Shown here one piece after another: positions 1 to 37,849 of a stretch of 64,000 nt of DNA. This stretch comes from Patescibacteria group bacterium (GTDB lineage: Bacteria > Patescibacteriota > Minisyncoccia > Phycocordibacterales > UBA918), in assembly GCA_040386275.1 (NCBI GenBank), contig JAZKFU010000008.1, positions 176,219-240,218 on the forward strand. The letters run 5' to 3'. Made by a program: the position numbers and the translations under genes. Each line of letters starts with the position of its first letter. Position 1 is the first letter of the stretch. Under the pieces are notes generated by a model. The model was given only the letters and a program-made list of their open reading frames with translations, did not search any database and was not told the origin of the DNA.

Positions 1-144
1 TGCCATCATACAATCGTTTTTCTATCTCAATGATGATGTTGGTGAGTTCTGTGGGTGTAGCACCAGCACGCCGTAGAGAACGGCGTAACTTTTCAATTTT
101 AAAGTACTCGGTACTTCCATCTGCTTTGGTTACCGTGATAGACA

Positions 145-1206
145 CTACAAGATGATACCACCTCCAATACACCTTTCACCTCGGTATAATACACAGGACT
201 GACCAGAAGCAATGGCTTCACTTTGTTGGGTTACTGTAAGAGTGATAGTAGTGTCGTCACTTTTTTCTACGGTTACCGTAAAGGGTTTTTGGCGATACCG
301 ACTTTGGGCTTGAAGCTCCTCTCCGATTTTTAATGTATCGGTAGTGACACACTGAATAAGCGTAATGGTTGATTGTGGTAATAGTATCGGTGCTGTTTCT
401 GAAACAGTGATGGTGTTGTGTACAGTATCTTTAGCTATTACATAGAGTGGCGCGCGATTGGGATTATGGTCATTAAGTATATAGCCTTGTCGTTGCCCGA
501 TGGTGTACACAAACGCTCCCTTATGCGTTCCAATTACTTCCCCCGATTCATTGAGCACACTACCCTCTTTCAAATCTATGTAATGTGATAGGAAATCAGG
601 AATATCAATGTGACCCAAAAAACATACACCCTGACTATCACGTTTGGTAGCCGTCAGTAACCCCGCAGCTAAAGCCTCTGCCCGAATCACATCCTTGGTG
701 CTGTTACCAACTGGAAATAATACTTCCTCTAAAATAGGTTTTGGTAGCGTCCAAAGAAAGTACGTCTGATCTTTCTGAGTATCCACTCCACGATGCATCT
801 CAACTCCTACTGTGCCCTGTATAGTCTGCGCGTAATGACCTGTTGCAATATAATCAGTGCCACGTTCTTTTGCAAAACGATAAAAAGCTCCAAACTTTAC
901 CTCCTTGTTACACATCACATCAGGGTTTGGGGTAAGACCCGCGCGGTAACTTTCAATAAAATAGTGTGCTACTGCATCCCTATATTCTGCTTCCGCATCA
1001 CAGGTAAGAAATGGAATTCCTAGTTTGGCTGCCACACGCATTGCGTCTAACCGTTCTTGTTCCCAGTTACATACCAAAAAATCCGGGTGCCAGACCTTGA
1101 TAAATACTCCGGTCACGGCGTACCCCTCTCGCTGTAGCCGTAACGCTGCAACCGAAGAGTCTACTCCGCCCGAGAGACCAACAAATACTTTTTTACCGTT
1201 CGTCAT
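145..1206 (-). CDS. mnmA: tRNA-specific 2-thiouridylase MnmA
   Basis: 353 aa; N-terminal PP-loop SGGVDSS; length and overall similarity typical of MnmA/TrmU. Confidence 0.88.
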   Translation of the reverse strand: MTNGKKVFVGLSGGVDSSVAALRLQREGYAVTGVFIKVWHPDFLVCNWEQERLDAMRVAAKLGIPFLTCDAEAEYRDAVAHYFIESYRAGLTPNPDVMCNKEVKFGAFYRFAKERGTDYIATGHYAQTIQGTVGVEMHRGVDTQKDQTYFLWTLPKPILEEVLFPVGNSTKDVIRAEALAAGLLTATKRDSQGVCFLGHIDIPDFLSHYIDLKEGSVLNESGEVIGTHKGAFVYTIGQRQGYILNDHNPNRAPLYVIAKDTVHNTITVSETAPILLPQSTITLIQCVTTDTLKIGEELQAQSRYRQKPFTVTVEKSDDTTITLTVTQQSEAIASGQSCVLYRGERCIGGGIIL

Positions 1207-25665: not shown

Positions 25666-25981
25666 ATAAGATGAACCCCTGCCAGTGATGGCGGGGGTTT
25701 TTATAGGAGTTTGCTTGCTTAGGGTCCAATGTGGTCACGAGTTACTAAGTATATTTGTTCACTTTGTTTCAAATCTACTAACAGCTCTCGACCCCGACCC
25801 TAGCGGACTTGTCCTGACGGTCACAAATTCGCTGATGCTCATAAGTGCCGCGGGACACAGCTCGTTCGTGACAAAGTCACATCACTCCGCTGTTCAAGTC
25901 CGCCCGCAATGTGCGCAGGCACATTGCTTAAGGTCCACGAACAAAAAATGGCACAACGCAGTGTGCTCATTTTTGTATTCG

Positions 25982-26054
25982 TGGACCCTAGCGGACTTGA
26001 ACCGCTCACCTCTTCCATGCCATGGAAGCGCTCTACCGGATGAGCTAAGGGCCC
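25982..26054 (-). tRNA. tRNA-Ala (anticodon GGC)
   Basis: cloverleaf GGGCCCTTAGCTCATCCGGTAGAGCGCTTCCATGGCATGGAAGAGGTGAGCGGTTCAAGTCCGCTAGGGTCCA; G3:U70 Ala identity pair; 7-nt anticodon loop ATGGCAT. Confidence 0.8.
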
Positions 26055-26575: not shown

Positions 26576-27223
26576 CTAGGCTACCTTTTTCGCTGCTCGT
26601 TTGGCAACCGTTGCCTTTTTACTCACCTTCTTTTTAGCTTTAGCCTTCTCGATTGCCGGGGTAACTTTCTTTGGCTTCCGAGTTTTAACTACAATATCCT
26701 CCCCTGCTTCTTCAACTGACTTAGTACCAACAATCGGTAATGCCTCAACAAGTTTTTCAGACGCTTTAATCAGCGCTAAAATTTGATTTATTTTCTCTTC
26801 TACAACACCAAGTTGCTTAACAAGTAGTTTGTAGTCAGGCGGGACAAACGCAGCGGGACTTGGTCGCTCCATAGTTCGGCCTACCATTTCGTTTGGTGTA
26901 AATCGATCTCGAGAAGTGTTGCTGTTTGTTGGGGCTTCATTTTTTGCAGCGAAACAATCACGACATAGTACGGGCTTCTTTCCATCAGGTCGGAACGGTA
27001 CTTCACATGACTTACCACAGGTAGTACAGGTAGCATTGTATAGAGTCACATCTTTCTTCTCTCGATCATTAGAGAATGATGGTCGGTTGTTGCCAAATGA
27101 AGGGCGTCCAGCACCTTCAAAACGCTTCTTTGGAGCATATTTACCCGCATCACTAAAGGGACGTCCACCAAGGTCTGGTTTGCGATTACGTAAACCGCCT
27201 GGTTCAAAGTTTTTCATATACAA
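26576..27223 (-). CDS. zinc-ribbon protein with R/G-rich N-terminus and Lys-rich histone-H1-like C-terminal tail
   Basis: CTTCGKSCEVPFRPDGKKPVLCRDCF (CxxC-x16-CxxC); C-terminus KAKAKKKVSKKATVAKRAAKKVA. Confidence 0.5.
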   Translation of the reverse strand: MYMKNFEPGGLRNRKPDLGGRPFSDAGKYAPKKRFEGAGRPSFGNNRPSFSNDREKKDVTLYNATCTTCGKSCEVPFRPDGKKPVLCRDCFAAKNEAPTNSNTSRDRFTPNEMVGRTMERPSPAAFVPPDYKLLVKQLGVVEEKINQILALIKASEKLVEALPIVGTKSVEEAGEDIVVKTRKPKKVTPAIEKAKAKKKVSKKATVAKRAAKKVA

Positions 27224-29477: not shown

Positions 29478-30113
29478 CTAAATAAACAAATGAAAGTCGT
29501 GGTGTAAGGTTATTGCTGTATTATTTAAATAAACTTTTTTTAAATTTAAATTAATTTTTAAAACACCAACTGTTTTCTTTTTATGACAATTTGGACACAA
29601 TGCCCATAAGTTAGAGATTTCTTCCCCTCCACCATTTGCTTTTGGAATAATATGATCAATATCAATACTATACCGATTTTTGCCATTTCCATCTTTCCAT
29701 TCTATGGACCATCCACACACCTGACAAGAATAATCTTCTAATTTAGAAACAATCTTTTTTTGATTTCTATTCTCAATTCTAATTTTTACAATATGTTTCT
29801 TATGTGATGGTGCAGTTGTAATAAAAGCTTGAGCTTTTTTTATAAGTGCAGCTTTATTTCGTACTGTAATTTTTTCACCTTCAAATGTTTCAAGATCATC
29901 ATATTCAGTAAGTGCATACACTCCTATGTCAACACGCTTAAAATTAAAACCTCGGTAGAGCTCTCTATATAACACTCCACGAATACCCGCTTTCCAATCT
30001 TTTGCGTCCATTGCGTCTGGATAAAATTTTGTGATGTGATTGTAAATATAAGTTAGTGGAGCAGCCCCTCCATTTTCTTTTATAACTTTAACAATAGCTT
30101 GTATTTTAGTCAT
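29478..30113 (-). CDS. HNH endonuclease with N-terminal winged-helix (HARE-HTH-like) DNA-binding domain
   Basis: C-terminal CQVCGW...DIDHIIPKANGGGEEISNLWALCPNCH HNH motif; N-terminal ...IRGVLYRE...RVDIGVYALTE. Confidence 0.7.
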   Translation of the reverse strand: MTKIQAIVKVIKENGGAAPLTYIYNHITKFYPDAMDAKDWKAGIRGVLYRELYRGFNFKRVDIGVYALTEYDDLETFEGEKITVRNKAALIKKAQAFITTAPSHKKHIVKIRIENRNQKKIVSKLEDYSCQVCGWSIEWKDGNGKNRYSIDIDHIIPKANGGGEEISNLWALCPNCHKKKTVGVLKINLNLKKVYLNNTAITLHHDFHLFI

Positions 30114-30121
30114 AAGTTTAA

Positions 30122-31048
30122 TTACTTTATTAAATCAACAAATCTAATTACTTTATTTATTTTCCAATCAATAATTTTTGAATAAATACCGTTATGTTTG
30201 TGCATTCTATTGTAAATACACCCCTCGCACTCATATTCCTCGATTTTATCTAACTCCTCAGTCTGTTCACCAAACAACTTAAATTGCCCAGGTATTGCCT
30301 CAACTTCATGAAAACAAGTCATAGGAACTACATAACGCAATCCATCCATCTGAATAATGTTCCAACTAATTATCTCAGCAAATTCCTCCTGAACCTTCAG
30401 TGATGGTTTCTGGGAGAACTTCGTCTCATAGTAATCAATGAGTGTATAGAGTAGATTTTCTCGAGCAATCAATACATTGTCGCCTTGCCACTCATACCCA
30501 TAACTTGCCTTGAACGCCTCCCGCGCCCAATTTAGCCAATCTTTCTTGTTGTCACAGTAACGAGAAACCACTTTCAACTTCCGGTCTAAAAAACCTACTC
30601 GCCCTGAAATACTGATGAGTGCTCCATGCGCAGTGGGGTTGTATCTAGTGACTATGAATGGCGCTTCTCCACAAGTAATCTCAAGTTTTAGTTCACGGAC
30701 ATACTCCTGCCAATTTTTTTTGTTTGGTTGAGAGCTTTCTAGTGCCTTGTTCATCTGCTCAATAGTCTTGAGTGGTGTAAAGACTTCGGCTTTCTCTTTT
30801 GTTCGATGTCGTTGTTCTTCCAGACTCTTTGCAGCACGAGGCTGAATGAGTAGTCGATACATACCCGTAACCAACTCTGGCTTTATTTGTTTATCCGGGG
30901 CAAATGCTCTCCCATATTGTCCATATGAATCAGTTGCCCAGATAATATTCTTTTTTGTTGTATGGTCGGTGAGAAGAATATCAAGCAAACAACCCTGGCG
31001 ACGAAGGGTGCTTTCCTTGATGTCGATGTCATATGAGGTCGCCACCAT
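30122..31048 (-). CDS. hypothetical protein coupled to the upstream 1323-aa fusion gene
   Basis: 308 aa; its ATG lies 4 nt after the stop of the upstream gene; contains an AEVFTP motif resembling MTase motif X and a possible degenerate CGEAPF; function not assignable. Confidence 0.4.
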   Translation of the reverse strand: MVATSYDIDIKESTLRRQGCLLDILLTDHTTKKNIIWATDSYGQYGRAFAPDKQIKPELVTGMYRLLIQPRAAKSLEEQRHRTKEKAEVFTPLKTIEQMNKALESSQPNKKNWQEYVRELKLEITCGEAPFIVTRYNPTAHGALISISGRVGFLDRKLKVVSRYCDNKKDWLNWAREAFKASYGYEWQGDNVLIARENLLYTLIDYYETKFSQKPSLKVQEEFAEIISWNIIQMDGLRYVVPMTCFHEVEAIPGQFKLFGEQTEELDKIEEYECEGCIYNRMHKHNGIYSKIIDWKINKVIRFVDLIK

Positions 31049-31051
31049 AGT

Positions 31052-34000
31052 TTATGTCATCAGCTTTACGTTTGTTTCTATGAAGTCAATTTCAGTCTTA
31101 TCTAAAGAGTACTTCTTGTATAACTGCTGATCAATTTCAGCAACTGTTTTTGACCAGTCGATATCTGATTTCTTAGTAAAATCTTGCATTGGAACATTAG
31201 ACCAAACACTTTTTGAATTATCTTGTGTTACTTTGAGGGTACCCAGAAGTGAACGATTGAACTTTGTCTTTAGATATTTAATACAGTTTTGCGCTTCACT
31301 ATTTGTTTCGAAAGAACCAATTTGTAAAAATGAGTAAGTGCAGCCTGTTCGAGGCCCAGCAACAATTGGTGTACTCAGAACTTCTCCTAACGTACCGCTG
31401 CCATTTGATTTTGCTAACAGTACTTTCCACTTATTTAACTTAGAGTCATTTACTATAGATTCACTAATGTAACGTTCCGTTCGCTTATTACCCTTTTCAA
31501 GACCTAAAATTTTTATATCCGTATCAGAATTCTGATTTTTTGCGAACACTTTTGGAAACCTTTCAAAATAATTTGGAGCAATACGTAAATCATTTGGATA
31601 TTTTTTGTCCAACACAACATTTAATTTAGTTTCCCCTCTTGGTCCTACAATTGAGCTAAATCTATTACTACCTATTTTTGATAAGACACTCCTCAATTCT
31701 TTATACGGAACAAACGTACCGCCCAGTCCACCAGTTGGTTTATTTTTATTCCACACCGTTATACAAACACCACCCTTAATGTCGACACCGGAGAAGATCT
31801 TTTGTGAATTTGGTTCGTACAAAGCAATGCTTAGATGTGGATCATTAAGCATTTGTCTATTCCACTCTTTAGGGGTAGCACCTGCATTGAAAAGAAAACG
31901 AGCAGGATGAATCAGTGAGACATAGTCAGGACCAAGACTTTTCGCTGCATCAAAAAACAGGTGGTAGACCGGCGTTGCAAAATTTGTCTCAGTATTTATT
32001 TGGTAGGGAGGATTCCCTACCACTGCTTTGAATTTCATATCATTTGGTAGCTTAAATTTTTCTAGTAATTCATTTTTGAGTTCATAGTCTGTAAAACAAT
32101 CTTTCTGCTGTAGCTTTTGCACCAAGTCATTGATATAGACAATGTTCGGCTTGTAACTCTCGTTATAACCAGCGAGCGTACGCTTGGTTATACTCTGTGC
32201 CATCGGGCTTTTACAAAGTACGTATATATGGTTACTGAGTACGTCTGCCCATATTTTATGAGCTTCTCGCTCCTCTAGCTTTTTACTCGCAACAAGCTTC
32301 CGTGAATATACATTGTACGCCGCTAGTAGCGGATACAGACCTGATTTAGAGTTAATTTCAAGTATTTTAGCATCTTCCTGACTCCATACGCTAGTGTCGA
32401 CGCCCTTACTTACCCAAATTGGCTTTCCAGTCTTTTTATCCACTTCACCACTGCTAAAGTTGTGACCACCAAATGCAAGAGTGAGGTGTTTATTAACTAC
32501 ATTCCATGGAGTAAGGACTGTTTCCTTGTCAGGGTTTTTAAAGGTGCTGAAAATATCTGCAATAGCCTGTACTCGTTCAGTTGGTAATAAATCATCACAA
32601 TCAAATGCTTTAGCACGAATGCTATGAGCTACTCCCTTAAAGACATCTTCGTCATAGTATTTTGTAAAATCACGGAACTGAGCTTTTGTCAGCCCGGCAG
32701 GCATAAACTCTTGCCATGATTCTTCATCCACTAAATTAATGAACTTACTGAGAGTAATGTCTTCCCGAATCGAAACATTAGCTCCATATACCAGCATCGG
32801 CATACGAATACTAACTGCCCGTAAGATACTTACTGCTGTTTGCTTTTGCCTACGTGCTTCTTTGAGTTTATTTAACGCTTCTTTCTGCTCCTCTGTCAGT
32901 ACTTCACCTTTTTTCTTTTTGCGTTCCGCTTCTTCCGCTTGCTTAGTCTTGAGATCATCCATTCCTAACTCATTGATCTTTATCTCATTTACACGCTCGG
33001 TTGATGATTTACCAACTAATTCTTTTAGCTGATTGAATTTCGCTATATCTAACTCATCAAGTTTCAATAGCTCATCGTTATAAAGTTTAGGATCATCAAA
33101 ACCATTTCGACTCACGCGCTCTATGATGGCTTTTTTAAGCTGACCCAGCATCATACTTACGTCATATAGCTTCATACTGCCACCTTCAGCAGCCAAAATC
33201 GGACAGAAATTAAGGAACCGCTCCATCGCTTCTTTCTGCTCGGGTGTATTTATCTTGCCAGATTTGTGGTTAAGCTCTATCGCTTCAGCAACAAGCTTTA
33301 GTGTTCGGTCAGGTGCAAAATCAAATACATAGCCCTGGGTCTTTATCTTCCCTTCAATTTTGGCTGGTGTCTGACAACGAAACGCTGTTTGCAAATACGT
33401 AGTAGCGGAATTAGTATCCGACATCATAAATACAGCGGTCCACTCTTTGATAGAGGCTCCTGTAGTGAGCCTCTGTCCTGTGAGAGTAATGGTGAAGTCG
33501 TTGTTCTTGATAGCTGTCGTTACACGATTTTTTGCATCACTGTCCTCCTCATCGTCATGATTGTTACCAGAAATATTTACGATACCAAACTTGCCGAAAA
33601 CGGAATGTTTCTTTAATAGATTCTCCATCGCCTCAATTGTTTTTACCCGATTAGGCAACAACCATAGCGAGTGTTTATTGAAATTACGATACTCTTCAGT
33701 CGCATAGGGAAACTTTGTTGGCAGCGTGTTGTTTACCAGAAGATCTAAAAACTTCTTTACCATTGACTCGTGCACAAACCGAGCTGGCGAATCAGCATCA
33801 TCTTCTGCAATCCTAAAAAACTCATGAAATTTAAATGCTCCGTCAAGTGAATCATGGAAACCTTCACCAAAAGTACCGATATGATTCGCATAGGTATCAA
33901 TATCGTATGTAAAGATATTTAACGCAGGTAACTCTGCATATGGATTTGGAACACCTGGATTTTGTTCGTCCCAGTTTAGCTTTGCTTCTTGCTCCATTAC

Positions 34001-35023
34001 ATAGTCCCAGGTGTAAATGTCCTCCTCTTCATGTTTGTGCAGAATATTAAATGGTGTACCAGACAGTTGTAATGTAAAGTTGGTTGGGATTTTAGAAAAT
34101 GTGGTATCGCCTAGATTACTTTGTGTCCCCTCGTGTGCTTCATCTACAATGACCATATCCCATATGGTGTCGAAAACTTGATCGTTCTTATCGAAACCCC
34201 TTGCTTCGGACCCTGAAGATTCATCAGCAACTACCCGCTTCGAGAGTCGCAGATCCTGAATTGAAGCAAAGTACACAAATGATTTACCGCTTTCCAACAA
34301 AACACCAATATTTTCACCTTTTGACTTTGAAGCATATTCATACCCAGCCCCAGCTAAAACCTTGTTGAAATCATCGTACCAGTCAACACTTACACTGGGT
34401 CGATGGGTAACGATAAGTACTCGCTTCATCTTAATTTCCTTAGCAACTTGCATGGCAGCAGATGTTTTGCCGAAACGCATCTTAGCATTCCAAAGAAAGT
34501 GTTTTCGCTTTTTCGCTATTGCTGTGCTTGTCTTTCTGATAGCCTCAAGCTGATTAGGACGGAAAGAAAATTCTGCTGTGGATTTAGCACTTTTTTCTTT
34601 AGTCGATAGAGCTGTTCTCCCCTCCTTTACTGCTTGAATTGCATTTTTAGCAACTGCCAAATTAACTTCAAACCATTCTGACCGAGTATTTCTTACACTC
34701 TCAGTCTTACGCTCATAACCTGATCGAATAAGTAGCTGGTGAACTTCATGATCTGAAAAACAATCACCCTCATTCATAACTGCAAGTTCTACATATTCAA
34801 GCTTATACGGAATATCAGCAGTTTTAGTTTGAGCTTTAATTCTTTCGTGTGCAGCGATTTCGATATCTTGCTGTGTAGGTTCGAGTGAACTTGTAGTCGC
34901 TTTACCAATTTTCAGGCGTCCTTCATGGGACCTGAGAGGAATTGAGTATACGTAAACAATACCGTATGAAAAAGTTTCATGAATATTATTAATAACAGCA
35001 TGATTCGGTACCCCTTTAGACAT
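31052..35023 (-). CDS. large restriction/defence fusion protein: GIY-YIG/T5orf172-like N-terminus, SF2 DEAH helicase (ResIII-like) and N6-adenine DNA methyltransferase-like domain (NPPY)
   Basis: GIVYVY...LKIGKATT at residues 21-44; Walker A RFGKTSAAM at 183-191; DEAH at 294-297 (nt 34133-34144 verified); motif VI QTAFRCQ at about 545; coiled-coil K/E-rich linker; VVGNPPYQ at 1001-1008 (nt 32003-32014 verified); downstream NGSGTLG at about 1207. Confidence 0.7.
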   Translation of the reverse strand: MSKGVPNHAVINNIHETFSYGIVYVYSIPLRSHEGRLKIGKATTSSLEPTQQDIEIAAHERIKAQTKTADIPYKLEYVELAVMNEGDCFSDHEVHQLLIRSGYERKTESVRNTRSEWFEVNLAVAKNAIQAVKEGRTALSTKEKSAKSTAEFSFRPNQLEAIRKTSTAIAKKRKHFLWNAKMRFGKTSAAMQVAKEIKMKRVLIVTHRPSVSVDWYDDFNKVLAGAGYEYASKSKGENIGVLLESGKSFVYFASIQDLRLSKRVVADESSGSEARGFDKNDQVFDTIWDMVIVDEAHEGTQSNLGDTTFSKIPTNFTLQLSGTPFNILHKHEEEDIYTWDYVMEQEAKLNWDEQNPGVPNPYAELPALNIFTYDIDTYANHIGTFGEGFHDSLDGAFKFHEFFRIAEDDADSPARFVHESMVKKFLDLLVNNTLPTKFPYATEEYRNFNKHSLWLLPNRVKTIEAMENLLKKHSVFGKFGIVNISGNNHDDEEDSDAKNRVTTAIKNNDFTITLTGQRLTTGASIKEWTAVFMMSDTNSATTYLQTAFRCQTPAKIEGKIKTQGYVFDFAPDRTLKLVAEAIELNHKSGKINTPEQKEAMERFLNFCPILAAEGGSMKLYDVSMMLGQLKKAIIERVSRNGFDDPKLYNDELLKLDELDIAKFNQLKELVGKSSTERVNEIKINELGMDDLKTKQAEEAERKKKKGEVLTEEQKEALNKLKEARRQKQTAVSILRAVSIRMPMLVYGANVSIREDITLSKFINLVDEESWQEFMPAGLTKAQFRDFTKYYDEDVFKGVAHSIRAKAFDCDDLLPTERVQAIADIFSTFKNPDKETVLTPWNVVNKHLTLAFGGHNFSSGEVDKKTGKPIWVSKGVDTSVWSQEDAKILEINSKSGLYPLLAAYNVYSRKLVASKKLEEREAHKIWADVLSNHIYVLCKSPMAQSITKRTLAGYNESYKPNIVYINDLVQKLQQKDCFTDYELKNELLEKFKLPNDMKFKAVVGNPPYQINTETNFATPVYHLFFDAAKSLGPDYVSLIHPARFLFNAGATPKEWNRQMLNDPHLSIALYEPNSQKIFSGVDIKGGVCITVWNKNKPTGGLGGTFVPYKELRSVLSKIGSNRFSSIVGPRGETKLNVVLDKKYPNDLRIAPNYFERFPKVFAKNQNSDTDIKILGLEKGNKRTERYISESIVNDSKLNKWKVLLAKSNGSGTLGEVLSTPIVAGPRTGCTYSFLQIGSFETNSEAQNCIKYLKTKFNRSLLGTLKVTQDNSKSVWSNVPMQDFTKKSDIDWSKTVAEIDQQLYKKYSLDKTEIDFIETNVKLMT

Positions 35024-35348: not shown

Positions 35349-35906
35349 TTAGGACAATTTCACACTATCGCTCACTAGGGGCTTTAGGTATTGCTGGTAT
35401 CTGGCGTCAGTTAGGGTTAGCTTGTAGTTGATGCGGTTGATTATTATTTTATAGGTTTTGCCGGCTTTACCGCGGATAGTGGTCTGGATGCGGAAGGTGG
35501 CGGTTTTGCCGGCGGGAATTTTGGCGTAGAGGAGGGTACCGAGAGTTACTTGGGAGACGCCTTCTCCACGGACGGTGACGTCAGCTGTGGTGATGACGCC
35601 TTCACCAGTGCCTTCGATTTGATACATGAAGCCAGTTGGTTTTTTGCCAGAGGCTATGGAGAGCGGGAGAAATACATCGGATTTTTTGGCAGTGATTTCT
35701 ACTGTAATCAGGAACTTTCCGAGTGCTTTGTCTTTCTCCCCTTCTACTTTGACTCGTTCAAAGCGAGCTTGGTCTTTGCCTTGCTTAACCGTGATGTTTT
35801 CATCTTTTCCTTCAGCTTTGTTGGCTATTACAAGCTCGTCTTGTAGGCGCTTTAGTTGTATTGCTAGGTCTTTTAAAAATTGTTTACCCTGAGGTGTTTT
35901 TGCCAT
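35349..35906 (-). CDS. hypothetical protein
   Basis: ORF in the AT-rich island; likely start at the internal Met (MAKTPQGKQ). Confidence 0.35.
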   Translation of the reverse strand: MAKTPQGKQFLKDLAIQLKRLQDELVIANKAEGKDENITVKQGKDQARFERVKVEGEKDKALGKFLITVEITAKKSDVFLPLSIASGKKPTGFMYQIEGTGEGVITTADVTVRGEGVSQVTLGTLLYAKIPAGKTATFRIQTTIRGKAGKTYKIIINRINYKLTLTDARYQQYLKPLVSDSVKLS

Positions 35907-35995
35907 ATCTATAATTATAGGATATAGACTAATGGGTATTTGGGAGTTTGTACCATAAAAAAACGTCACCCCAGGGTATGGGATGACGTCAGTGG

Positions 35996-36973
35996 TTAGG
36001 ACTGAAGGACTAATTCTCGGTGGATCATTTGATTCACTACCAACTGCTTACTGAGCGCGTATTTGCCACACTGGGCATACAGCTGGGCTATACGAGGTAA
36101 ATCGTCCTTTAGATGTTCGTACCCATCAGTAACTTCGGCTAGTTCGTTTAGCTTGTCATGCCGTCGTGTCGCCGAAGTGATCCCCTCTGGCACTACTTCA
36201 TTACGCTCTAGCCAATCTTGTACTCGATTTATACAAGACTGGTAGTCTGCGAGCGTTTTGTTGACGAGAGATGCTCCATCAATCATATACAGCGTGTAGT
36301 TCGGAAAAGAACGTTCAAACGCTGTGATGATGAATTCTAACCGTGCGGTGGGCAGTTGGTATAACCAACGGTTCCCGGACGGGTTCGTGAGCTGTACCTG
36401 TTGTATCAAGAGCCGACGGTTCTCCATCACGGAAAAACTTACGGTCATGACATGCTTTTGACGATGATAGACAAGGAACGCAAACACGCCGTCGATGAAG
36501 GTGCGTGCGTACTTGGAATAGCCAAATTGATTGTAGCCAGTAGTGTAGTCCAACCGCAGTTCAAACTCAGGCGGTAAACCAAGAGAGTACGAGCGTATGC
36601 CGTTGTAGACATCCACGAGTTCGTTCCAAGTACCTTTTCCCACGCCCCAACGCCACCATGAGCTTTGGATTTTTCGAACTACTTCGTGGTTTGGATCCTT
36701 TTCAAAGACCTCATCAACTGTCCGATCCATGATTTTGGCACTCGAGAACCTCATTTTGCAGAGATCCTCAAAGGTAAAGTCAGACAGCTCATTAAGTGGC
36801 AGTTCATGGAACTGACTATAAAAGTCAAAGGAAGAATAATAGGCTTCGATGTACTGCTTACTCCTGGCCAACTTTTCAGTGACATTTTCAATTGACCGCA
36901 CTGGGTTGGTGACATACTCTTCACGAACCTTGTGGAGGTCTGAGGTGAGTACGGAAAGTTCTAGACCAATCAT
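35996..36973 (-). CDS. hypothetical protein (island-encoded)
   Basis: ORF; likely start MIGLELSV; divergent from the PD-(D/E)xK gene. Confidence 0.4.
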   Translation of the reverse strand: MIGLELSVLTSDLHKVREEYVTNPVRSIENVTEKLARSKQYIEAYYSSFDFYSQFHELPLNELSDFTFEDLCKMRFSSAKIMDRTVDEVFEKDPNHEVVRKIQSSWWRWGVGKGTWNELVDVYNGIRSYSLGLPPEFELRLDYTTGYNQFGYSKYARTFIDGVFAFLVYHRQKHVMTVSFSVMENRRLLIQQVQLTNPSGNRWLYQLPTARLEFIITAFERSFPNYTLYMIDGASLVNKTLADYQSCINRVQDWLERNEVVPEGITSATRRHDKLNELAEVTDGYEHLKDDLPRIAQLYAQCGKYALSKQLVVNQMIHRELVLQS

Positions 36974-37091
36974 GGCATTCTCCTGGGCTAAGTTTCTGGG
37001 GTGGATTATACTATGGATTTGGTATTTGTATAGAGTTGAAGTTTGTACCCTTTTGAAGCATTTTAAAATTTTGATTGGTATAATTGGATTC

Positions 37092-37568
37092 ATGAATAAT
37101 ATACATTTCACCCATGAGTTGGTTAAAGGTAAGATTGCTGAATTAATATTTGCCCAAATGATTCGTAGTACTGGAGTGCACACCATCCTTGAATTTGGAT
37201 ATGAAAAAACATTACCTTCTCTTGCTCAAATGCATCCTCGCAGTGAGTCTTCTGCTGAAACAATGGAGATCATTAAACGAGCTCCAGATTTTACAATTAT
37301 CAACCATAAATCAAAAGAGGTACATTTGATTGAAGTGAAGTATATGAAAGAAGTAAAGCCGGCAGTAGTGATGCGTGCTGCTCGTAATATTGAGAAGTCA
37401 TGGAAACAAGCGGCTTTATTTGTTGCTTCACCGACCGGTTTTTACTTTGACCAAATCGATAAAATTATAAAAAACAAAGGACAAATTTCTGAATTTAAAC
37501 ATAATAATATTACGCCTAAAACGCAGAAGGAGTATTTGAAGTTATTGAATGAGTTTATTGCGATTTAG
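37092..37568 (+). CDS. PD-(D/E)xK nuclease-fold protein
   Basis: PDFTIINHKSKEVHLIEVKY fits the D...(E/D)xK core; start at MNNIHF rather than the long upstream extension that overlaps the divergent gene. Confidence 0.45.
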   Translation: MNNIHFTHELVKGKIAELIFAQMIRSTGVHTILEFGYEKTLPSLAQMHPRSESSAETMEIIKRAPDFTIINHKSKEVHLIEVKYMKEVKPAVVMRAARNIEKSWKQAALFVASPTGFYFDQIDKIIKNKGQISEFKHNNITPKTQKEYLKLLNEFIAI

Positions 37569-37773: not shown

Positions 37774-37849
37774 TGGTGGACCCGAGAAGATTCGAACTCC
37801 CTGCCTCTTCAGTGCAAATGAAGCGCTCTACCAAGTGAGCTACGGGCCC
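37774..37849 (-). tRNA. tRNA-Ala (anticodon TGC), CCA encoded
   Basis: GGGCCCGTAGCTCACTTGGTAGAGCGCTTCATTTGCACTGAAGAGGCAGGGAGTTCGAATCTTCTCGGGTCCACCA; G3:U70; anticodon loop TTTGCAC. Confidence 0.85.

Follow-up and report, generated by a model that had tools for sequence, protein, structure and literature searches.

The closest described counterparts of the locus considered here are the restriction-modification enzymes LlaGI and LlaBIII of Type ISP, in which a single polypeptide suffices and carries, in order, an Mrr/PD-(D/E)xK nuclease, a superfamily 2 (SF2) motor, a helical coupler, a gamma-class adenine methyltransferase and a specificity domain. The full LlaBIII enzyme has ~1570 amino acids (aa). 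A second point of comparison is DnmA (YeeA)-YeeB-YeeC of Bacillus subtilis, a three-gene cluster that methylates DNA and whose Vibrio homologues affect phage sensitivity (PMC9973331); it has been put forward as a restriction system akin to Type I in which one strand is methylated (PMC2731913, PMC9973331). We analyzed a 64,000-nucleotide stretch of DNA from a Patescibacteria group bacterium (GenBank assembly GCA_040386275.1, contig JAZKFU010000008.1, positions 176,219 to 240,218; hereafter the window, to which all positions refer), in which a gene for a 1323-aa protein, the large subunit, is followed by a gene for a small partner protein. On balance, we consider it probable that the two genes form a Type ISP-like, ATP-dependent restriction-modification system with a nuclease of the GIY-YIG clan, in which methylation would need a separate half-domain that binds S-adenosylmethionine (SAM).

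The reading frame of the large subunit and the motifs quoted for it in the original prediction, which had been made from the DNA letters, were found in place on recomputation: GIVYVY (residues 21-26), LKIGKAT (37-43), Walker A FGKTS (184-188), DEAH (294-297), QTAFRCQ (545-551), GNPPYQ (1003-1008) and NGSGTLG (1207-1213), with the DEAH box and NPPY at the nucleotides listed in Table 1. That prediction had divided the chain into a GIY-YIG/T5orf172-like module, a helicase and an adenine methyltransferase, and hidden Markov model searches bore it out, as all three Pfam domains exceeded their curated cut-offs: T5orf172 (residues 21-132; 22.9 bits, cut-off 20 bits), ResIII (152-325; 63.5 bits) and Eco57I (931-1077; 79.4 bits). 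The motor also matched SWI2_SNF2 slightly under its cut-off (25.9 bits), and no NCBIfam model matched either the large subunit or the partner.

Conservation was assessed in an alignment of 114 sequences, i.e., the query and 113 cluster representatives that are 33-56% identical to it. In the motor, G185, K186, D294 and E295 are each retained in 113 sequences, T187 and H297 in 111, and Q545 and R549 in all 114; NPPY is kept in 112. About 12 of the aligned sequences carry no nuclease module, and among the ~102 that do, Y24 is present in 99, K38 in 102, G40 in 97, R61 in 93, H95 in 89 and E116 in 96. Membership in T5orf172 is indicated both by the profile match and by the conserved active-site residues Y24, R61 and E116; the position of the second Tyr is occupied by a Lys (K38), as is usual for T5orf172. 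Catalytic residues of all three modules are kept, and because they are nearly invariant in 113 diverged representatives, the modules are under purifying selection at these positions. Activity of a T5orf172 domain as a nuclease has precedent in ICP1 Odn (PMC8263062).

Table 1. Features of the two-gene locus and the adjoining gene (window positions; residue numbers refer to the protein named).
Feature	Window position	Strand	Residues	Sequence	Remarks
Large subunit gene	31052..35023	minus			T5orf172 nuclease, SF2 motor, helical coupler, predicted gamma-class methyltransferase, specificity domain
T5orf172 / GIY-YIG-clan nuclease module	34628..34963	minus	21-132		Pfam
SF2 ATPase motor	33104..34570	minus	~152-640		Walker A 34460-34474, DEAH 34133-34144, motif VI 33371-33391
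Helical K/E-rich linker (coupler)	32525..33103	minus	~641-833		AlphaFold2 and Foldseek
Internal K-type N-half of methyltransferase	32036..32524	minus	834-996		AlphaFold2, Pfam, alignment
Large subunit motif X			834-840	ETVLTPW	
Large subunit motif I			888-899	LEINSKSGLYPL	beta1-loop-helix
Large subunit motif II			933-939	IYVLCKS	beta2
Large subunit motif III			965-967	NDL	
Large subunit motif IV			1004-1007	NPPY	
Methyltransferase C-half and C-terminal specificity domain	31055..32035	minus		MKFKAVVGNPPYQ onward	NPPY 32003-32014
Partner gene, predicted SAM-binding N-half of Eco57I-type methyltransferase	30122..31048	minus	308 aa		starts 3 nt past large-gene stop
Partner motif X			88-92	EVFTP	
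Partner motif I			122-131	LEITCGEAPF	
Partner motif II			184-191	GYEWQGDN	acid present
Partner motif III			233-236	QMDG	
HNH endonuclease gene	29478..30113	minus	211 aa		8 nt after partner; Pfam HNH 52.4 bits

An AlphaFold2 model of residues 130-1323, built from a 50-sequence alignment, has a mean predicted local distance difference test score (pLDDT) of 84 and a predicted template modelling score (pTM) of 0.67. Searched against the PDB with Foldseek, it matched LlaBIII best over its whole length (4xqk; E = 4e-19, 1345 aligned columns), then LlaGI (5ffj; E = 8e-15). Later matches include SauUSI, the Snf2/ISWI/Chd1 motors, the adenine methyltransferase CamA, and BrxX/PglX. The linker, described earlier as K/E-rich, is nearly all helix in the model, with long helices around residues 690-738 and a single low-confidence stretch (model residues 548-559). 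When the full chains are aligned by Foldseek, it falls colinearly on the coupler of the Type ISP enzymes. The order of the Pfam domains and the two best structural matches bear out the description of a Type ISP-like enzyme that has a GIY-YIG nuclease instead of Mrr.

The large subunit shares with LlaGI and LlaBIII the order of all five parts, and relatives of both kinds are plasmid-borne in lactic acid bacteria. It differs from them in several respects: (i) Its nuclease is T5orf172/GIY-YIG, whereas Type ISP enzymes use Mrr/PD-(D/E)xK. (ii) Sequence similarity is undetectable in searches of PDB chains. (iii) A small partner gene, known here from genetic evidence, accompanies it. (iv) Motifs I and II of its internal SAM half are atypical. 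(v) Its length is 1323 aa, compared with 1517 residues in the solved LlaBIII chain. The locus is without two defining Type ISP features, the Mrr nuclease and the sufficiency of a single chain, and is best filed as an uncharacterised variant of the Type ISP/Type I-like kind.

In the model, strands beta1 to beta7 of the methyltransferase carry the motifs in the order X-I-II-III-IV, as in an ordinary gamma-class methyltransferase of the Eco57I type, and the Foldseek matches to CamA and BrxX agree with this class. Beta1 to beta3 of the internal N-half are predicted with high confidence, and the Eco57I match covers profile positions 1-171, with profile position 1 at residue 931. The original prediction had correctly noted that no literal FxGxG lies upstream of NPPY and had leaned toward a beta-class, circularly permuted enzyme. 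This permutation was rejected because motif I is not downstream of motif IV: its structural equivalent lies upstream, in the canonical gamma-class position, and another is found in the partner, while the NGSGTLG segment that had been taken for a displaced motif I sits in the C-terminal specificity domain and is loosely conserved. The core of the internal motif I reads E-I-N-S-K-S-G, with K893 at the position of the first Gly in 113 of the 114 aligned sequences; we refer to such a half as K-type. Motif II has no acid at the end of beta2, where the query has C937 and the alignment Cys, Ala or Thr. The canonical SAM-binding residues (Gly-rich motif I, acidic beta2 end) are lacking in the large subunit and present in the separate partner.

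The partner family is adjacent to and co-oriented with the large gene in 81 of 85 related loci; in two of the remaining four (L011 and L015) the sequence stops where the match does. No other neighbor of the large gene is conserved, and the pairing is obligate, with the partner lying downstream in the close clade and upstream in a clade of 41-46% identity. Motifs X, I, II and III of the partner are invariant, NPPY is absent, and the C-terminus forms a CxxC/H hairpin; its motif I resembles that of M.TaqI. By these motifs and by its phage homologues (below), the partner corresponds to the SAM-binding N-terminal half of an Eco57I-type methyltransferase, and the view of the locus as a single-chain enzyme has to be given up. 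A Pfam scan of the partner returned no domain; PADLOC assigned it to MTase_II (PDLC03390, 'Type II methyltransferase', 304 bits), and an identical NCBI protein, from a metagenome-assembled genome of a 'Patescibacteria group bacterium', is named 'restriction endonuclease subunit M'. On Lactobacillales plasmids the partners are only 224-238 aa long; their motif I (EPAAGDGNF), with GxG, is fully canonical, and their motif II reads GIE. The partner of Lactococcus lactis pCV56A scores above the Pfam N6_Mtase threshold, in a match confined to profile positions 20-105. When the partner was aligned to large-subunit profiles with hhalign, the region of motif X alone aligned, not significantly, and we therefore do not claim the internal half as a recent copy of the partner.

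In the two-gene system that we propose, the C-terminal methyltransferase/specificity module of the large subunit would read the DNA target, flipping a base into the pocket formed by NPPY. Where the DNA is unmodified, the Snf2-like SF2 motor would hydrolyze ATP and pull double-stranded DNA, and the N-terminal T5orf172/GIY-YIG nuclease would nick or cut at a distance, probably upon collision of two enzymes. The partner would be an obligatory subunit of adenine methylation and would protect the host, and the system as a whole may act against phages.

Several observations weigh against this proposal: (i) The internal SAM half departs from the usual pattern in motif I, where an invariant Lys replaces the first Gly, and in motif II, which has no acid, and the large subunit alone may therefore not methylate. 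(ii) The AlphaFold2 model of the partner is poor (pLDDT 63) and its Foldseek search returned noise, with no fold match, so we draw no conclusion about its fold; the role suggested for it would follow from gene architecture only. (iii) The Foldseek TM-scores of the large subunit are low (~0.27), probably because the domains are similar yet arranged differently. (iv) Searches of PDB chains by phmmer with the large subunit and by hmmsearch with the 40-sequence and partner alignments gave nothing significant, and the kinship with Type ISP is accordingly argued from fold and domain order alone. (v) We found no biochemically tested member of the family in the literature, and B. subtilis DnmA-YeeB-YeeC gave no phage protection in the reported assays (PMC9973331).

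Fused and split relatives bear on how the two halves belong together. Gene 28 of Fusobacterium phage FNU4 encodes, in one frame, a partner-like N-half (hmmsearch E = 2e-56) that runs directly into KFDVVIGNPPYQ; the Pfam Eco57I profile spans the junction, and beyond it the C-terminal part shares 35% identity with the large subunit (residues 996-1320). The frame of this gene remains open for ~230 nt upstream of the annotated ATG (L089 1682-1912), where it encodes a partner-type N-terminal domain and motif X (IAEVFTP); that stretch contains no ATG, GTG or TTG, so the start is misannotated or the gene is 5'-truncated. In Tenacibaculum phage PTm1 the halves are separate genes, gp279 being partner-like (hmmsearch E = 1e-61) and gp277 beginning with MKFDIIVGNPPYQ and matching Eco57I profile positions 73-171 only. 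Over residues 994-1322 of the large subunit, identity to gp277 and to the C-terminus of FNU4_28 is 32-35%. The C-half region as a whole is 32-44% identical to stand-alone C-half proteins (PTm1 gp277; L090 6902-7927), which start at the equivalent MKF..NPPY, and the MKFxAVVGNPPYQ of window-type large proteins falls exactly at this start point. The phage proteins, which are uncharacterised, thus have an N-half homologous to the partner and a C-half homologous to that of the large subunit, but no motor, nuclease or internal K-type half, and they are presumably plain methyltransferases.

Four further relatives have three genes (L090, MT835780.1; L091, Bifidobacterium longum plasmid p1; L092; L093). 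In each of them, one gene encodes the partner and another a separate C-half whose start lies shortly ahead of NPPY. The third product joins T5orf172, motor and coupler to a terminal K-type N-half of its own (..IFTP.., D-L-Y-M-K-S-G) and has no NPPY. This form of the motor protein accounts for 10 of the 150 best cluster representatives. In L092 and L093, which are ENA metagenome contigs, the three genes lie amid many small open reading frames (ORFs) with Phage_VG64 and Phage_YunG-like Pfam matches, and some three-gene versions may be phage-borne. The fused and split phage forms and the three-gene relatives indicate that the family always encodes two N-halves per NPPY/specificity C-half, one free and of SAM type, the other of K-type and tied to the motor.

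The three-gene relatives also make plausible a different use of the two halves, which we regard as possible though rather unlikely: the NPPY C-half/specificity module could be completed by either of the two N-halves. With the SAM-competent partner it would be a methyltransferase, with the SAM-poor, motor-linked K-type half it would be the target-recognition head of the restriction machine, and competition between the N-halves would set the balance of modification and restriction, and of self and non-self. Such an exchange is consistent with the occurrence of a separate C-half beside a K-type-ended motor subunit in the four three-gene loci, and with the recurrence of motor proteins that have no NPPY. 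It also fits the contrast between the TaqI-like or canonical SAM motifs of the partner and the K893 and missing motif II acid of the internal half, as well as the finding that beta1 to beta3 of the partner are the least confident parts of its stand-alone AlphaFold2 model. In the fused form found in the window, however, the partner would need either to dislodge the internal N-half or to work on a different molecule, and since AlphaFold2 packs the internal N-half confidently against the C-half, displacement would probably be costly. Moreover, K893 may permit SAM binding, as the first Gly of motif I is also missing from M.TaqI, and the large subunit might offer the partner another binding site.

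The atypical internal motifs I and II would also suit an enzyme whose methyltransferase-like module is a non-catalytic reader of sequence or modification state, serving a modification-dependent or otherwise gated nuclease-motor in a system that makes no protective methylation. Type IV-like nucleases adjoin the genes (GmrSD in close relatives, HNH in the window), and the Foldseek similarity to the Type IV motor enzyme SauUSI points the same way. We nevertheless consider a non-catalytic reader improbable, given that NPPY is nearly always kept, that the regular presence of a SAM-type partner is hard to explain without methyl transfer, and that the phages encode nothing of the system but the two methyltransferase halves, as is usual for anti-restriction methylases. 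The two-gene restriction-modification system described above remains our preferred reading.

The family is widespread. The protein database holds more than 8000 relatives, of which the best 120 are full-length, 66-88% identical and from many phyla; together with the near-invariant catalytic positions in the 113 representatives, this number argues that the observation is not due to chance. An exhaustive search with residues 130-1323 gave 4533 clusters (50% identity) at E <= 1e-3 and 1009 at E <= 1e-30, and 105 of the 150 best cluster representatives carry a T5orf172-like N-terminus. When genomes were scanned, one for each species, at least 573 loci came to light, among them loci of Patescibacteria, Bacteroidota, Bacillota, Gammaproteobacteria and Spirochaetota. 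Cultured carriers include L. lactis CV56 (pCV56A), Levilactobacillus brevis ATCC 367, Treponema berlinense ATCC BAA-909, Thomasclavelia saccharogumia DSM 17460 and Parabacteroides massiliensis SN4. Full-length relatives of ~40-43% identity are carried by ~35 plasmids, mostly of Lactobacillales. Those of lactic acid bacteria (L001 3518-7876 on L. lactis pCV56A, and others) are 1450-1490 aa long and have an N-terminal extension before T5orf172 with weak DUF4145 and HsdR-N-like matches. In the window, the GC content dips to 0.38-0.40 at the locus, compared with 0.43-0.46 nearby, and the surrounding 24 kb, compared by megablast with phage and plasmid records, returned no match.

GmrSD, CBASS-like genes and integrases adjoin relatives of the large gene. 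About 2 kb downstream of one close relative (L007 14140-16156), a patatin and a DncV-like nucleotidyltransferase form a CBASS-like pair, which fits a defense island. What follows the partner differs from locus to locus, making this slot a hot-spot for various nuclease-like or defense genes: relatives have GmrSD, DUF4357, DUF2779, a PDDEXK-like protein, DUF5655 or a trypsin-like protease there (examples are L004 12942-15065, L006 12990-14693, L007 6232-7998, L008 5737-6588 and L023 12081-13430), and in L009 the large gene and the partner are separated by a Schlafen/AlbA_2 gene. In the window this slot is taken by the HNH gene, whose product has weak Type IV and PtuB-like PADLOC matches; as the gene is not conserved in relatives, it was rejected as a core component, and we treat it as an accessory or independent neighbor at this locus only. 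That the HNH protein is the true nuclease of a three-gene system, with the T5orf172 module merely binding DNA, is very improbable: the three genes are tightly packed in the window and T5orf172 was originally described as a DNA-binding domain (background cited in PMC9973331), but the HNH gene is absent from relatives, in which the partner alone is conserved, and the catalytic-type residues of T5orf172 are retained.

Just upstream of the large gene, two minus-strand ORFs (35996-37186, 396 aa; 35349-35969, 206 aa) have no significant Pfam or PADLOC match, the 206-aa product giving a marginal PADLOC match (E = 0.009, 13.7 bits), and a terminator-like hairpin (35962-35990) lies between them. Minus-strand tRNA-Ala genes flank the region at 25981-26054 (GGC) and 37774-37849 (TGC), ~3.5 kb and 2.7 kb away. 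The product of a further minus-strand gene (26576-27223) is 215 aa long; it contains a treble-clef zinc finger (Pfam zf_Tbcl_2, 54 bits), and its C-terminal tail is very rich in lysine.

Existing labels place the large subunit elsewhere. PADLOC calls it Type IIG (REase_MTase_IIG, 182 bits, mostly over the C-terminal domain), with a further match of MTase_II PDLC03375 to its C-terminus, and NCBI names relatives 'Eco57I restriction-modification methylase domain-containing protein' or 'restriction endonuclease subunit M'. Type IIG/IIL enzymes (Eco57I, MmeI) resemble it in fusing a nuclease to an Eco57I-type methyltransferase and a specificity domain. However, a full SF2 ATPase with Walker A, DEAH and motif VI lies here between nuclease and methyltransferase, and because of this motor the protein is not Type IIG; to our knowledge, the Type IIG enzymes characterised so far lack an NTP-dependent motor, and their nucleases are of the PD-(D/E)xK kind. 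Restriction-modification had already been flagged by PADLOC and NCBI, and we found no paper that characterises the architecture. Two papers mention such enzymes in passing, reporting that large polypeptides of this kind exist and that some relatives have GIY-YIG nucleases (PMC2731913, PMC3553950).

Compared by description, DnmA-YeeB-YeeC and its Vibrio crassostreae homologues contain the same ingredients, i.e., an Eco57I/MmeI-type adenine methyltransferase, an SF2 helicase and a T5orf172/GIY-YIG protein. There they are three separate proteins with a complete MmeI-like methyltransferase chain, whereas here the nuclease and motor are fused to the C-half and the N-half is duplicated as a separate gene. 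Membership in the bacteriophage exclusion (BREX) or DISARM systems, which the original prediction had also ruled out, was rejected: a PADLOC scan of the neighbors contained none of the BREX (BrxA/B/C/L, PglX/PglZ) or DISARM (DrmA/B/C) genes, and these multi-gene sets were not found beside the large gene. In a term search, the MANTIS preprint (10.64898/2026.09.23.753747) made no mention of GIY-YIG, T5orf172, YeeB or DnmA, and we treated that system as different and BREX-related.

The locus thus stands for a large family known by automatic labels only, present in at least 573 species genomes and ~1000 clusters (50% identity, E <= 1e-30) and ranging over many phyla, phage-like contigs and plasmids of Lactobacillales from dairy and clinical sources. 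Annotation pipelines mislabel the system, splitting it into a 'Type IIG' large protein and a stand-alone 'Type II methyltransferase'. Its architecture shows the Type ISP design with a second nuclease fold and includes a methyltransferase that is split between two genes and has its SAM-binding half in duplicate. If the two N-halves do exchange on one C-half, modification and restriction would be coupled to a single specificity domain by a new principle. The methyltransferase Rossmann fold would then be a swappable subunit interface, unlike in Types I, III and Type ISP, and the family would offer a natural split-enzyme scaffold for engineering.

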